From Candidatus Latescibacterota bacterium (lineage in GTDB: Bacteria > Latescibacterota > UBA2968), in NCBI GenBank assembly GCA_038279365.1, contig JAYODI010000055.1, positions 1 to 40,517 on the forward strand: 40,517 nt of DNA, given 5' to 3'. The position numbers and the translations under genes are program-made. Shown here one piece after another: positions 4,923 to 14,068 of the stretch. How positions within the stretch are numbered: the stretch's first letter is position 1; every line of letters starts with the position of its first letter. The notes beneath the pieces are model-generated. The model was not told where the DNA came from. It saw only the letters and a list, made by a program, of their open reading frames with translations, and searched no databases.

Positions 4923-5303
4923 TTACTTCTTCTCTTCTTTGGCCTGTGCCACCTTTGTAATCGAACCCCGCGAAACCTCAATCTGCACATCTTTGGCCAC
5001 CTGAATAATCAAAATACCTTCTTTTTCTTTGACACCCGTAATCGTACCGTGCACCCCACCCGACGTCACCACTTTGTCACCCTTTTTCAAAGCATCAATC
5101 ATTGCTTGTTGCTCTTTTTGCTTTTTGTGTTGGGGCCGAATAATCAAAAAATACATCACCACAAACATCAACACAAAAGGCAACATCGTCACCAACATAT
5201 TGGGTTGTTCGGCTCCTGTTGGTGCAGGTGCACCACCCATTGCCGCAACCTCACGCACCTGACTGGCAAAACTCAAAACAAAAAAAAGAACACCCGCACC
5301 CAT
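4923..5303 (-). CDS. yajC: Preprotein translocase subunit YajC
   Basis: YFLIIRPQ.KKQK and LKKGDKVVTSGGVHGTI motifs; downstream of tgt as usual. Start uncertain (5303 or 5342). Confidence 0.93.
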   Translation of the reverse strand: MGAGVLFFVLSFASQVREVAAMGGAPAPTGAEQPNMLVTMLPFVLMFVVMYFLIIRPQHKKQKEQQAMIDALKKGDKVVTSGGVHGTITGVKEKEGILIIQVAKDVQIEVSRGSITKVAQAKEEKK

Positions 5304-9159: not shown

Positions 9160-10047
9160 TTATCGAATCCCCAAAGCCACCCGATGCCCACTGCCCAACC
9201 CCGCAGAGATGGGCAAAAACGCATAATCTACCCGCCAATTTTTGCGCATCACACCCAATCCCAACGACCACGAACGCGTATCGTGCCCCGTCACAAACCC
9301 ACCGCGCAAAAACAGCCGCTGCTTCACCACATACTCCACACCCACATTGGCACCCAAATCGCCTCTATCAGGCATACGAAAGTCGGCACTCACCGTCAGC
9401 ACATCACGCACATAGGAAGCACCCAAACGAATTGTTCGTGGCAAAGGCGTGCGTTCCTGATCCAATTGCTCCATCCGCCCCAAATTGCGATACGTTGCCC
9501 CCACCATCAATCCAGGAATGCCCGGTTGATACATCAGCCCCAAATCCACGCCCACACCCCACGCACTTTCCGATGCAATATTTTCGTGCAAAGCCTTCAC
9601 CCCCACCCCCAAATAGGTGCGTTGTCCAAATCGCTGGGCATAAGACACACCCGCATTGAGATCATACACGCCAAATGTACCCAATGGCTCAAGCGTTGGA
9701 GCCGTACGTGCTTCAAAACCGCCTATCGAATATACCCCCAAACTCAAGGCCAACCCACGTTTTTGGTTGCCATAAGCCCATCCACCATAAGCCTGATTGA
9801 TGCCCTGAATCGATTTTTGATGCATCAAAACAAAATCTTTGCCCTGCAAAGCCGCCACACCTGCGGGGTTCCAATACGCCGCCGTCTGATCACCCACCAC
9901 TGCCGTGTAGGCCTCCCCCATAGCCGCTGCCCGTGCCCCAATGCCCTCACGCAACAACACAAATCCTGTTTGACGAGAAGCCACATCGGCCTCAACCCTG
10001 CCAGCACAACACCATACAATCACCACAAAAAACAAATACCGTTTCAA
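9160..10047 (-). CDS. PorV/PorQ-like (UPF0164-type) outer-membrane beta-barrel
   Basis: Signal peptide, GARAAAMGEA...A.YWNPAG motif, alternating beta-strands and C-terminal DYA...LG..H. GAGGAGG before TTG 10047. Confidence 0.8.
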   Translation of the reverse strand: MKRYLFFVVIVWCCAGRVEADVASRQTGFVLLREGIGARAAAMGEAYTAVVGDQTAAYWNPAGVAALQGKDFVLMHQKSIQGINQAYGGWAYGNQKRGLALSLGVYSIGGFEARTAPTLEPLGTFGVYDLNAGVSYAQRFGQRTYLGVGVKALHENIASESAWGVGVDLGLMYQPGIPGLMVGATYRNLGRMEQLDQERTPLPRTIRLGASYVRDVLTVSADFRMPDRGDLGANVGVEYVVKQRLFLRGGFVTGHDTRSWSLGLGVMRKNWRVDYAFLPISAGLGSGHRVALGIR

Positions 10048-10095
10048 ATAAACCTCCTCACCCCATAAACATGCAACAATACAGTTGGTTCTCAA

Positions 10096-10124
10096 AGAGT
10101 AAGCAATACCCTATGTCGTGTCAA
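10096..10124 (-). promoter_or_regulatory. Sigma70-type promoter for the PorV-like gene
   Basis: TTGACA-17 bp-TACTCT on the minus strand. Confidence 0.6.
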
Positions 10125-10142
10125 TGCCAATTAGATTTCACA

Positions 10143-10171
10143 TTGACAAGACACAAACCATATTTTACATT
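10143..10171 (+). promoter_or_regulatory. Sigma70-type promoter for the tdh leader
   Basis: TTGACA-17 bp-TACATT. Confidence 0.7.
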
Positions 10172-10190
10172 CCTAAATATACAATGACAC

Positions 10191-10243
10191 ACGTGGTGAG
10201 TTGAGACCTATTGCAGCCACGTAAAACAACTGCTAAAAAGTCG
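10191..10243 (+). ncRNA. SAM-II (SAM_alpha-type) riboswitch aptamer
   Basis: ACGTGGTGAGTTGAGACCTATTGCAGCCACGTAAAACAACTGCTAAAAAGTC matches the recalled SAM-II pattern GTGGTGA.TTG...TTGCAGCCACGT.AAACAA..GCTAAA. Pairings: ACGTGG/CCACGT, AGTTG/CAACT, GAC/GTC. Confidence 0.82.
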
Positions 10244-10247
10244 CGAC

Positions 10248-10273
10248 CCCGGGCTTTTTGCTCGGGTTTTTTT
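10248..10273 (+). terminator. Intrinsic terminator in the tdh leader (probable expression platform)
   Basis: CCCGGGC-TTTTT-GCTCGGG followed by T7, 60 nt upstream of the tdh ATG. Confidence 0.8.
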
Positions 10274-10333
10274 GTTGGTCATCACAACAACCAACCAAAT
10301 AGCGGCCAATAGCTTATCCGCAAAGGAGAGCCC

Positions 10334-11464
10334 ATGTCCACCACAATGAAAGCCATCCGCAAACCCAAGGCCGAACCCGGCTTGGTTGTTGAAGATGTGC
10401 CCATTCCATCACCCGGCCCACACGATGTGCTTGTACGGGTAGAAGCCACCAGCATATGTGGCACCGACCTGCACATCTACAAATGGGACGACTGGAGCCG
10501 CAACCGCATCAAACCACCCATTACCCTCGGCCATGAATTTGCAGGCACCGTGGTCGAAGTGGGCAAATTGGTCGAACAAGTCCACATTGGCGATTATGTC
10601 TCTGCCGAGAGCCACATCACCTGCGGACACTGCTTCCAATGTCGCACAGGCCAGGCCCACATGTGCCCCCAAACGCAAATTTTGGGCGTAGACCGCGATG
10701 GCGCTTTTGCCGAATATGTCGTCATTCCCGAAACTGTCGTCTGGCAAAACAACCGCACCAAACTGCCACCTGAAATTGCCACCTTACAAGAACCCTTTGG
10801 CAACGCCGTTTTTGCCTCTCACTCCCACGACCTTACTGGCCAAACCGTGGCCGTTTTTGGGTGTGGTCCCATTGGGCTTTTTAGCATTGGCATTGCCCGT
10901 GCTGCCGGTGCTGCCGCCGTTTTTGCCATTGACCCCGTCGAATTTCGCCTTGGGCTGGCTTGGGCTATGGGTGCTTCTCAAACCTTTGCCCCCAAAAAGG
11001 GCGAAAGCACCCTCGATTGGCTCTTAGAAGCCAACGAAGGTTTTGGGGTCGATATTGTGCTCGAAATGAGCGGTGCGCCTCCAGCCATTAACGATGCCTT
11101 TTCTGCCGTGCGAAACGGCGGTCGCATGACCCTATTTGGCATCCCTGCCGATCCTGTCGAAATCGACGTGGCCGAAAAAATGATCTTCAAAAACCTCACG
11201 GTTTGCGCCCTCAATGGCCGCCGCATTTGGGATACGTGGTACAAAACGCGCTGGTTGCTCGAAAGTGGTGTGGTTGATCTCAACCCACTCATCACCCGAA
11301 AAATGAAATTTGAGCAAATCGACGATGCCATTGCCTTGCTTAGCCAAGGGCAAGCCTGTAAAATCGTCTTGTGTCCAGACCACGCAAAAGAAGCACCACT
11401 TCCCCAAACAGACACACAGCGAGCCGTTGATGCCAATGTTACAGGGCAGATTGTCCATCCCTAA
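10334..11464 (+). CDS. tdh: L-threonine 3-dehydrogenase
   Basis: SICGTDLHIY.WD.W, GHEFAG, VSAESHITCGHC..C..G..H.C, EPFGNAV, G.GPIG and LEMSG motifs; AAGGAG SD. Confidence 0.9.
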   Translation: MSTTMKAIRKPKAEPGLVVEDVPIPSPGPHDVLVRVEATSICGTDLHIYKWDDWSRNRIKPPITLGHEFAGTVVEVGKLVEQVHIGDYVSAESHITCGHCFQCRTGQAHMCPQTQILGVDRDGAFAEYVVIPETVVWQNNRTKLPPEIATLQEPFGNAVFASHSHDLTGQTVAVFGCGPIGLFSIGIARAAGAAAVFAIDPVEFRLGLAWAMGASQTFAPKKGESTLDWLLEANEGFGVDIVLEMSGAPPAINDAFSAVRNGGRMTLFGIPADPVEIDVAEKMIFKNLTVCALNGRRIWDTWYKTRWLLESGVVDLNPLITRKMKFEQIDDAIALLSQGQACKIVLCPDHAKEAPLPQTDTQRAVDANVTGQIVHP

Positions 11465-11485: not shown

Positions 11486-11521
11486 AAAAGCCGATGCGTA
11501 TTAAACGTGTCGGCTTTTTTT
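11486..11521 (+). terminator. Intrinsic terminator after tdh
   Basis: AAAAGCCGATGCGT-loop-ACGTGTCGGC followed by a T run. Confidence 0.8.
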
Positions 11522-13047: not shown

Positions 13048-13129
13048 AGACCACCCCTTGCGTTTTAACGGTTGCCTGATTATTCTTTACCCATCACTTA
13101 AAAACAGACCACTCAAAAAAGGAACACAC

Positions 13130-14068
13130 ATGCCCAAAATTTACGACGACATCACCCAAACCGTTGGCAACACCCCACTCGTGCGCGTAAACAAACTGCT
13201 CAACAACCCCAAAGCCGATGTATTGGCCAAATTGGAGTATTTCAATCCCCTCGGCAGTGTCAAAGACCGCATTGGCGTGGCCATGATCGAAGCCGCTGAA
13301 CGCGAAGGTAAAATCACCCCCGACACACACATCGTTGAACCCACATCCGGCAACACAGGCATTGGTTTGGCATTTGTCTGTGCCGCAAGGGGTTACCGTC
13401 TCACCCTCACCATGCCCGAAAGCATGAGCCAAGAACGACGTTTGTTGCTCAAATCATTGGGTGCCACATTGGTGCTTACACCTGCCGACAAAGGCATGAA
13501 CGGCGCCATCGCCGAAGCCGAACGCATTGTCTCTGAAGACAAAAATGCATTTATGCCCCAGCAATTCAAAAATCCGGCCAATCCAGAAATCCATCGCAAC
13601 ACCACAGCCGAAGAAATCTGGCGCGATACCGATGGCCAAGTAGACATCCTCGTTTCTGGCATTGGTACAGGGGGCACCATCACAGGCGTTTCCGAAATAC
13701 TAAAAAAACGCAATCCCCAATTTAAAACCATTGCCGTCGAACCCGATGCCTCACCCATCTTATCGGGTGGCAAACCTGGTCCACACAAAATTCAGGGCAT
13801 TGGCGCGGGGTTTGTGCCCGATATTCTCAACACCAAAACCATCGACGACATCATACGCGTCACCAACGATGAAGCCTTTGCCATGGCCCGTATGGCCGCA
13901 ACAAATGCAGGTTTGCTCGTAGGCATTTCTTCAGGTGCCGCCCTCCACGCTGCAAAAGTGGTCGCCCATCGCCCCGAAAGCGAAGGCAAAACCATTGTGG
14001 TCATCATTCCAAGCTGTGGTGAACGTTATCTGTCCACCGACTTGTTTGCCCACTTGCGCGACCAATAA
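13130..14068 (+). CDS. cysK: Cysteine synthase A
   Basis: [36 protein letters not shown] and GERYLST motifs. Confidence 0.96.

Follow-up and report, generated by a model that had tools for sequence, protein, structure and literature searches.

A SAM-II riboswitch candidate with an intrinsic terminator upstream of a threonine dehydrogenase gene in a Latescibacterota genome

The contig JAYODI010000055.1 of a Candidatus Latescibacterota bacterium (assembly GCA_038279365.1, G000 in our numbering; 6.03 Mb in 199 contigs) was analysed over 40,517 nt, the whole of which is called here the window. On its forward strand, the window carries a compact unit composed of a sigma-70-like promoter, an RNA that matches the SAM-II family of S-adenosylmethionine (SAM) riboswitches, an intrinsic transcription terminator and the open reading frame (ORF) of tdh, a predicted Zn-dependent L-threonine 3-dehydrogenase gene (Table 1). 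An earlier note on this DNA, made from the letters alone, had placed in front of tdh a promoter, a SAM-II-like pseudoknot at 10191–10243 and a GC-rich stem followed by seven thymidines at 10248–10273. Inspection of the sequence located promoter, aptamer, terminator and ORF at those same coordinates, with the limits of the pseudoknot agreeing within a base or two. The promoter stands about 20 nt 5′ of the P1 stem of the aptamer and the tdh ORF is preceded by AAGGAG. Downstream, a strong terminator, whose folding none of 200 shuffled sequences equalled, ends the transcript, so that tdh forms a unit of one gene. We consider it very probable that this is a real SAM-II element controlling tdh.

Table 1. 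Features of the tdh unit and of related loci (window coordinates unless a locus is named)
Feature	Position	Strand	Details	Basis
Sigma-70-like promoter	10143..10171	+	TTGACA 10143-10148, 17 nt spacer, TACATT 10166-10171	10/12 consensus matches
SAM-II aptamer match	10183..10256	+	RF00521	37.6 bits
P1 stem	10192-10197 with 10216-10221	+		clade alignment
L1 loop	10198-10204	+	G at 10200 where family has U	
Pseudoknot 5′ strand, within P1 loop	10205..10214	+	P2a GAC 10205-10207; P2b U10209 and UUGC 10211-10214	
Pseudoknot 3′ strand	10232..10242	+	GCUAAAAAGUC; pairs with 10205-10214; U10234 unpaired	
Intrinsic terminator	10248..10273	+	CCCGGGC / UUUUU / GCUCGGG and U7; hairpin 10248-10266, 7 pairs (6 G-C), loop of 5; T7 10267-10273	
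Shine-Dalgarno region	10322..10330	+	AAAGGAGAG; 4 nt before ATG	read from sequence
tdh, predicted Zn-dependent (MDR family) L-threonine 3-dehydrogenase	10334..11464	+	376 aa	NF003808 and solved relatives
Strong terminator hairpin and U-run 3′ of tdh	11486..11518	+		-19.3 kcal/mol, z = -5.5
kbl-SDR locus in another genome, L208	L208 2970-5017	+		
kbl-SDR locus in another genome, L209	L209 1729-4092	-		

The aptamer and the enzyme encoded downstream

A covariance-model search with SAM_alpha, which the earlier note had proposed as a check, identified RF00521 (SAM-II) as the sole Rfam family reaching its gathering score (36 bits in this case) in the window. The match covers the full model (positions 1–79 of 79), with an E-value of 4.3e-5 when the window is compared with 4227 Rfam families and of 1.4e-6 when the whole genome is searched. 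Alignment of 18 distinct aptamers of the clade found the positions of P1 and the pseudoknot paired in 98.8% of cells (100% for P1 alone and 97.9% for the pseudoknot alone), compared with 23–55% in control structures whose partners had been slid by 1–3 columns; the structure was drawn from these same sequences and from the published architecture, and the percentage leans in its favour. The outer pair of P1 occurs as A-U, C-G, G-C and G-U, P2a covaries (G-C, G-U and A-U at columns 18/54), and covariation with both sides changed is found at two pairs across the 18 sequences, in all of which GCUAAAAA is invariant. The P1 loop supplies the 5′ strand of the pseudoknot, which is of the H-type, with helices P2a and P2b and one unpaired U, as SAM-II requires. 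Judged on sequence and alignment, the RNA is a member of the SAM-II class that agrees with it at every structural point checked except for one base of loop L1, and SAM binding by this copy is predicted.

The exceptional base is G10200. Loop L1 reads GAGUUG in this leader instead of the conserved GAUUUG, and G10200 aligns with the uridine that opens the run of three in L1. In passages of a crystal-structure-based account of SAM-II (PMC3303485), an L1 uridine contacts U44, the partner base of the SAM adenine. Two relatives from metagenomes, L128 (protein 98% identical to this Tdh) and L130 (92%), also have G at this position, in leaders that show differences elsewhere. Its retention in leaders that have diverged argues against decay, and G10200 looks like a tolerated variant of the lineage. 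L1 also varies in other tdh leaders, where it reads CAUUUG, GAUUUUG, CAAUUUG, CCAUUUG or GUUUUG.

As for the gene, Tdh scores 423.3 bits on NF003808, the profile of L-threonine 3-dehydrogenase, exceeding its cut-off of 380, and contains both Pfam domains of Zn alcohol dehydrogenases (ADH_N and ADH_zinc_N). The five best relatives in PDB are all L-threonine 3-dehydrogenases (2d8a, with E = 7.7e-103, then 2dfv, 3gfb, 2dq4 and 5kia, to 1.6e-81), with the next match far behind at E = 3.6e-48. Residues C42, H67, E68, C97, C100, C103 and C111 are invariant in 28/28 aligned homologues; we take them to be the catalytic and structural Zn ligands, from what is generally known of the medium-chain dehydrogenase/reductase (MDR) family. 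The AlphaFold2 model of the monomer has a confident core (mean pLDDT 89.9), and residues 358–362 and 364–376 fall below 50. The NF003808 profile and the structural relatives agree with the name tdh that the gene had been given, the stricter TIGR00692 profile falls short of its cut-off, and we assign it as a Zn/MDR-type threonine dehydrogenase, with that activity being predicted. A role of the product as a non-orthologous homoserine dehydrogenase was considered and rejected, since the genome has a canonical Homoserine_dh gene (206 bits) and Tdh is not needed for the homoserine step.

The protein also has a C-terminal tail of about 30 residues (residues ~348–376, window 11377–11461), which ends here in ...DANVTGQIVHP. 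The tail finishes in a conserved His-X, within GQxVHP in this protein and as HR, HL or HH in others, and it is present in L034–L040, L044–L054, L056, L058 and L059, from metagenome-assembled genomes (MAGs) of at least five phyla. It is common to riboswitch-less homologues in MAGs of Chloroflexota, Acidobacteriota, Actinomycetota and Planctomycetota, and it is not tied to the switch, because the tail-less enzymes of genomes G090 and G091 carry the same riboswitch.

A terminator complementary to the pseudoknot strand

The apex and 5′ arm of the terminator (10250–10261) are predicted to act as the antiterminator partner of the pseudoknot 3′ strand, to which 7 contiguous nt are complementary at the apex in this leader. 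When Watson-Crick and G-U pairs are allowed, at least 7 contiguous nt complementary to GCUAAAAAG are found at the terminator apex in 27/30 distinct leaders, and in 7/8 when only tdh leaders are considered, compared with 19 of the 717 predicted hairpin-plus-T6 terminators of this genome; the leaders are related, non-independent sequences and their platforms (21–120 nt) are longer than the background hairpins, and the contrast is to be read as indicative, not as a probability. The complementary segment (CUUUUUAG, CUUUUUGG or a similar one) tops the hairpin, and the lower stems differ among lineages. The complementarity count was used because a search for terminators with perfect stems missed the hairpins of L037, L124, L008 and L020.

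Folding of transcripts of this leader cut at 10258–10264 gave, as the minimum-energy structure, P1 together with an antiterminator in which 10232–10245 pairs with 10250–10261 (-9.2 kcal/mol). Once the 3′ arm of the terminator is complete the terminator (-13.4 kcal/mol) wins, and blocking the pseudoknot strand and the P1 loop, as a mimic of the SAM-bound state, yields P1 plus terminator. In 5 of the 16 leaders folded (L034, L035, L001, L006 and L023), the antiterminator was the minimum-energy fold even with a complete terminator. Plain folding of the whole leader had been tried as a test of the switch and was abandoned in favour of cut transcripts, since it returns the terminator and no switch. 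Because the terminator is more stable than the antiterminator in the full leader, a switch at this locus would have to be kinetic. The conserved complementarity between GCUAAAAAG and the apex fits a putative antiterminator/terminator switch that SAM turns off.

A model of how the leader may work is as follows. Transcription would start just 3′ of the -10 box (10166–10171), some 15–20 nt before P1. When SAM is bound, GCUAAAAAGUC (10232–10242) would be locked in the H-type pseudoknot and in a triplex with the P1 loop, and with the strand locked, the hairpin 10248–10266 with its U7 would form and halt RNA polymerase. When SAM is scarce, the strand 10232–10242 would be free on leaving the polymerase and would pair with nucleotides 10250–10261 of the terminator, its 5′ arm and apex. 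This antiterminator would delay formation of the hairpin, and the polymerase would continue into tdh. The pseudoknot 3′ strand would be the element common to both states, the SAM-bound pseudoknot and the proposed antiterminator, and the direction of the switch would be OFF with SAM.

With respect to transcription in nature, a metatranscriptome contig (X16, 152 nt, no differences) spans 10201–10352, across the terminator and into the ORF, and pieces of the tdh ORF were found in three other RNA libraries. X16 is compatible with natural read-through and counts as weak evidence of it, being one assembled contig in which DNA carry-over is possible. The RNA libraries consist of assembled contigs, which carry neither starts, ends, strands nor levels, and the stretches that they leave uncovered, among them all of the sequence 5′ of 10201, are uninformative.

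Conservation of the arrangement and other SAM-II copies

The survey of tdh leaders in relatives that the earlier note had called for was carried out on 168 genomes of the phylum, of which 11 gave a protein match at E <= 1e-140; a twelfth, G043, was left out because its tdh gene is cut by a contig end. In 8 of these 11 testable genomes, from three families, the tdh orthologue has a SAM-II element immediately 5′ of it: G000, G005 and G007 (f1), G026, G036 and G041 (f2), and G090 and G091 (f3, from another order of the same class). In all eight it is on the same strand as tdh, 40–130 nt from the start codon, and scores 36.8–48.4 bits. The motif TTGACA-N17-TAnnTT precedes P1 in the five tdh leaders viewed by eye (this one and those of G005, G007, G036 and G026). 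Among metagenome tdh loci, a covariance model of the clade found SAM-II upstream in 5/80 (L128, L129, L130, L133 and L141), with proteins of 72–98% identity, and found none at the locus with 68% or at the remaining ones with 66% or less. Outside the phylum, none of the 80 nearest tdh loci (from Chloroflexota, Acidobacteriota, Actinomycetota, Planctomycetota and others) had a SAM-II element according to the clade model R1, which sees only SAM-II and was the sole model applied to L064–L123; the 20 closest of these loci showed no match to any Rfam family at gathering score. The canonical Tdh of the same-genus genome G001 (L041), to which our protein is 40–42% identical, has no upstream Rfam match at E <= 0.01.

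A maximum-likelihood tree places the nine tdh genes of the order in a single clade (support 97/92), inside which the three riboswitch-less genes are a subclade. Those of G090 and G091, which have the riboswitch but encode no C-terminal tail, branch apart from it in a deeper clade of their own. Since the riboswitch is present before two separate Tdh lineages of one class, it appears to follow the function of the enzyme, which points to selection on that function. These comparisons also indicate that the pairing of SAM-II with tdh is not an accident of this genome.

Three RF00521 matches above the gathering score are present in the genome: one on contig C20 (46.9 bits), one on contig C99 (38.1 bits) and the copy before tdh. 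RF00162 (SAM-I) was not found in the genome at E <= 0.01, and for other classes the search covered the window and the loci to which the whole of Rfam was applied. Of the 41 relatives searched, 40 had RF00521, as did 60 of 151 genomes sampled across the phylum (f1, 29/29; f2, 18/19; f3, 2/2; f4, 10/64; ten other families, 0/36). Inspection of 31 RF00521 loci showed, by eye, the N-terminus of the same pyridoxal phosphate (PLP) enzyme downstream in 29, tdh in one, and the orphan C99 copy as the last; among the 29 PLP-enzyme loci, the enzyme scanned against NCBIfam was that of our genome. The C20 copy (88537–88612; locus L001 = C20:87037–90112) lies before the gene of this 395-aa Cys/Met-family PLP enzyme, directly after thrC and on the same strand. 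The enzyme falls below all NCBIfam equivalog cut-offs and its best scores, of about 400 bits, are for the methionine gamma-lyase and cystathionine gamma-synthase family. In many PLP-enzyme leaders there are two terminators in tandem, with GCUUUU(U/G) present once more in the loop of the second one.

The tdh and C20 copies share the aptamer core, the promoter layout and a terminator whose apex, GCUUUUU(A/G)G, is complementary to the pseudoknot strand. They differ in that the C20 copy scores higher (46.9 bits), has the canonical GAUUUG and often a second tandem terminator, and has as its target a classical gene of methionine synthesis; this PLP-enzyme copy occurs in almost all genomes of the order. 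Our aptamer, like the C20 paralogue, is in a 5′ leader, but that of tdh and not of a methionine or SAM biosynthesis gene, the context that the C20 paralogue fits.

The C99 copy (C99:241–315; L002:241–360) is followed by two successive hairpin-plus-U-run terminators and then by about 450 nt of AT-rich DNA. No ORF of at least 100 aa was found within about 470 nt 3′ of it, and the next gene is SNF2-helicase-like. Possible explanations of this copy are a riboswitch left as an orphan, a small RNA that senses SAM on its own, or what remains after a rearrangement. In two f4 genomes, RF00521 matches occur in tandem on one strand, 90–260 nt apart (G163:C175:4777–4853 and 4942–5018; G131:C159:132–212 and 470–548), and are possible tandem SAM-II riboswitches.

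Around the tdh unit, the upstream neighbours are on the opposite strand, a PorV/PorQ-like gene (9160–10095) and a gene for an M50 peptidase, and the downstream ones are a BNR_4 gene and then cysK. The latter (cysteine synthase A, 454.6 bits; 13058–14068, forward strand), located 1.6 kb 3′ of tdh, is a nearby gene of sulfur amino acid metabolism; it is not part of one transcript with tdh, because the reverse-strand BNR_4 gene separates them. The motifs GTGTCAATGCCAA and CAAAGAGTA are found 5′ of the tdh promoter, at about 10090–10130, where the opposite strand reads TTGACA-N17-TACTCT, which we regard as the promoter of the divergent PorV/PorQ-like gene. Similar motifs occur in all eight close tdh orthologue loci viewed, including riboswitch-less ones, and not in L041; their common presence indicates that the PorV/PorQ-like and tdh genes are a syntenic pair. 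The stretch is also present in DNA runs labelled as estuary, marine and marsh metagenomes.

Metabolic purpose and comparison with known systems

What could a SAM sensor gain from controlling threonine dehydrogenase? The genome has genes for the complete pathway by which threonine could supply the SAM methyl group, namely kbl (617 bits, cut-off 493), gcvT (411 bits), the gene of serine hydroxymethyltransferase (SHMT), metF (307 bits) and metH (1696 bits). As had been noted before, kbl, whose product is the partner of Tdh and which frequently shares an operon with it, is not adjacent to tdh in the window; it is on contig C127, beside a short-chain dehydrogenase/reductase (SDR) gene (L042: kbl 1498–2760 and SDR 720–1475, both on the reverse strand). 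Among the six genomes of the order in which SAM-II precedes tdh, kbl was found in five; the sixth, G005, is 82% complete. According to the route we propose, Tdh would oxidise L-threonine to 2-amino-3-ketobutyrate, Kbl, encoded elsewhere, would split this compound into glycine and acetyl-CoA, and the glycine cleavage system, MetF and MetH would use carbon from glycine to build the methyl group carried by methionine and SAM. Low SAM would open this threonine-fed supply of glycine and one-carbon units alongside the homocysteine-forming PLP enzyme that is also predicted to be under SAM-II control. Induction of threonine catabolism by SAM shortage for the supply of methyl groups, which the earlier note had suggested, is plausible. 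Taken as a whole, the statement that a SAM-II OFF switch governs a one-gene tdh unit with one-carbon supply as its purpose is put forward tentatively, since we rate its chances as slightly short of even. With the same reserve, and with doubt weighing a little more than conviction, we suggest that SAM-II may have been recruited to gate threonine catabolism in this uncultured and little-studied class, where threonine would then be a store, under regulation, from which glycine and one-carbon units are drawn for methyl homeostasis. In genus g7, kbl is present in 15/15 genomes, and no Zn-type tdh was found at E <= 1e-60 in the 13 of these searched.

Several observations weigh against this proposal, apart from the relatedness of the leaders and the carry-over mentioned above. 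The aptamer of this genome is only 1.6 bits above the gathering score, and at column 12 a U is found in 17/18 clade sequences and in the Rfam consensus, with G only in this copy; because G10200 replaces the aligned L1 uridine that contacts U44, affinity for SAM could be lower. The plain minimum-energy fold of the full leader is the terminator with or without the aptamer, and the folding z-score of the leader is only -1.8. Tdh reaches 422 bits on TIGR00692, below the cut-off of 458.35. The f1 orthologues of G003, G004 and G008 have no Rfam match upstream at E <= 0.01, and a tdh of this kind is absent from the majority of genomes in the order, so that the link is dispensable. In the 3/3 genomes viewed, which represent both families of the order, kbl is directly followed by the gene of a classical SDR (about 250 aa, FabG-like by NCBIfam), an enzyme that may usually serve Kbl as its threonine (or allo-threonine) dehydrogenase. 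Finally, none of kbl, gcvT, metF, metH and the SHMT gene carries SAM-II, the genome having three copies only.

How far do these observations favour other explanations? A near-threshold score and a folding z-score of -1.8 are what one might expect if an A/U-rich leader with a hairpin had passed the Rfam threshold by chance. We regard this as practically negligible, mainly because the same arrangement is conserved in relatives, the element standing before orthologous genes in seven other genomes and five metagenome contigs with up to 48.4 bits, and the genome-wide E-value (1.4e-6) argues likewise. A real aptamer that no longer responds to SAM, either as a relic before a leaky constitutive terminator or with its ligand preference shifted, would account both for a score that barely passes (37.6 against 36 bits) and for G10200, which takes the place of a U that, by alignment with the account in passages of PMC3303485, belongs to the SAM-binding triple. 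However, P1, the two helices of the pseudoknot, the terminator with its antiterminator complement and the rest of the conserved positions are intact, the G persists in L128 and L130 despite the divergence of their leaders, and L1 is variable in other tdh leaders too. Loss of SAM response is for us very unlikely.

The remaining alternatives accept the switch and differ about what it serves. The enzyme might not be primarily a threonine dehydrogenase, acting instead on another hydroxy-amino or keto-amino substrate tied to methionine or SAM, or making aminoacetone or aminopropanol. A different substrate had been raised in the earlier note on the ground that kbl is not adjacent, and what can be said for it is that Tdh misses the TIGR00692 equivalog cut-off (422 against 458), is only 40–42% identical to the canonical Tdh (L041) of its own genus, is not encoded beside kbl, which has its own conserved SDR neighbour, and ends in a conserved tail with His-X that has no known role. 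Yet the protein exceeds the NF003808 cut-off, its five best solved relatives are all threonine dehydrogenases with the next family at 3.6e-48, the catalytic and structural Zn ligands are invariant, a bona fide kbl exists elsewhere in the genome (617 bits), the canonical homoserine dehydrogenase leaves no empty slot in that pathway, and tail-less enzymes in G090 and G091 carry the same riboswitch. The suggestion is weakly supported and we find it distinctly improbable. A second alternative keeps both switch and enzyme and changes the purpose. Threonine inhibits aspartokinase and homoserine dehydrogenase; degradation of threonine at low SAM would lower the pool, relieve this feedback on the trunk from aspartate to homoserine and direct homoserine to methionine, with one-carbon supply being incidental. 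The position of the other SAM-II target, the homocysteine-forming PLP enzyme directly 3′ of thrC, suits this explanation and the one-carbon proposal equally. In its favour are also that threonine synthase (ThrC) competes for the same homoserine-derived precursor and that gcvT, metF, metH and the SHMT gene are free of SAM-II in a genome with three copies. Methionine regulators cross-wired to thrABC have been predicted in Proteobacteria, according to passages of PMC4239095. On the other hand, inhibition by threonine of the aspartokinase and homoserine dehydrogenase of this organism is an assumption, degrading a finished amino acid is a costly route, and feedback relief is compatible with one-carbon supply rather than exclusive of it. 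We therefore see it as unlikely to be the principal purpose and keep methyl-carbon supply as the preferred explanation of SAM-II control of tdh.

Part of what is described here is not new. The earlier note had emphasised the coupling of SAM-II to a terminator; the coupling is there, and it is not special to this locus, since passages of Corbino 2005 (PMC1273637) report terminators and a promoter just before P1 in many SAM-II representatives, and Barrick & Breaker 2007 (PMC2258182) state that many or most of them carry terminators. In that 2007 survey the mechanisms of SAM-II had not yet been experimentally established (PMC2258182), and the conserved complementarity between pseudoknot strand and apex offers a concrete model for SAM-II-driven termination. 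What is new is tdh as a member of the regulon and the host lineage. In the passages of PMC4239095 that describe SAM_alpha regulons in about 200 proteobacterial genomes, the genes listed are metY, hom, metA, metX, metC and metW. The text passages of PMC4239095 contain no occurrence of tdh, and its Table S2 could list rare SAM-II neighbours; no paper connecting tdh to a SAM riboswitch came up in our literature search, and rare neighbours could likewise be listed in Additional data file 1 of PMC1273637. The view that tdh is an unusual regulon member is in line with these sources.

As described so far, regulons of SAM riboswitches are made up of genes for the synthesis and transport of methionine, cysteine and SAM. 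SAM-II before tdh would extend this logic to the supply of methyl carbon, or to keeping in balance the two branches of the aspartate family that lead to threonine and methionine, and would give an example of SAM-II, clearly designed as terminator/antiterminator, functioning beyond the phyla from which the class was defined. If the proposal is true, tdh would be the first member of a SAM riboswitch regulon that is both catabolic and outside the sulfur pathways. The claim is easily testable, because the leader is 160 nt long, the unit has a single gene and the enzyme is soluble.

The closest described counterpart of the leader is the SAM-II metA element of Agrobacterium tumefaciens, as presented in passages of Corbino 2005 (PMC1273637). 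Both match the same covariance model and have a single P1 with an H-type pseudoknot and the invariant GCUAAA 3′ strand; in both, a promoter stands a few nt 5′ of P1, an intrinsic terminator separates P2 from the ORF and the predicted logic is OFF. Compared with described SAM-II elements, ours precedes tdh, a catabolic gene outside the regulon of metY, metA, metX, metC, hom and metW given in those passages of PMC4239095, its host is neither a proteobacterium nor a Bacteroides, and one L1 uridine is G. On the side of the enzyme, residues 1–346 align with the solved Zn threonine dehydrogenases of Pyrococcus horikoshii (2d8a/2dfv), Thermococcus kodakarensis (3gfb) and Thermus thermophilus (2dq4) at 328–347 bits, and the GroES-like and Rossmann domains and the catalytic and structural Zn ligands are shared, whereas our protein has the additional tail of about 30 aa ending in His-X and reads GCGPIG instead of the usual GAGPxG. 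A more distant parallel comes from animals. Work by Shyh-Chang and colleagues in 2013 reportedly found that threonine dehydrogenase feeds SAM synthesis in mouse embryonic stem cells. The sequence of steps reported there, from threonine to glycine, one-carbon units and SAM, would be the same as in our proposal, and we use it as an analogy only; the mouse system differs in being eukaryotic, in having an SDR-type Tdh and in being regulated by means other than a SAM-sensing RNA. If the proposal holds, the leader described here would be a bacterial counterpart, at the RNA level, of that Tdh-SAM axis.

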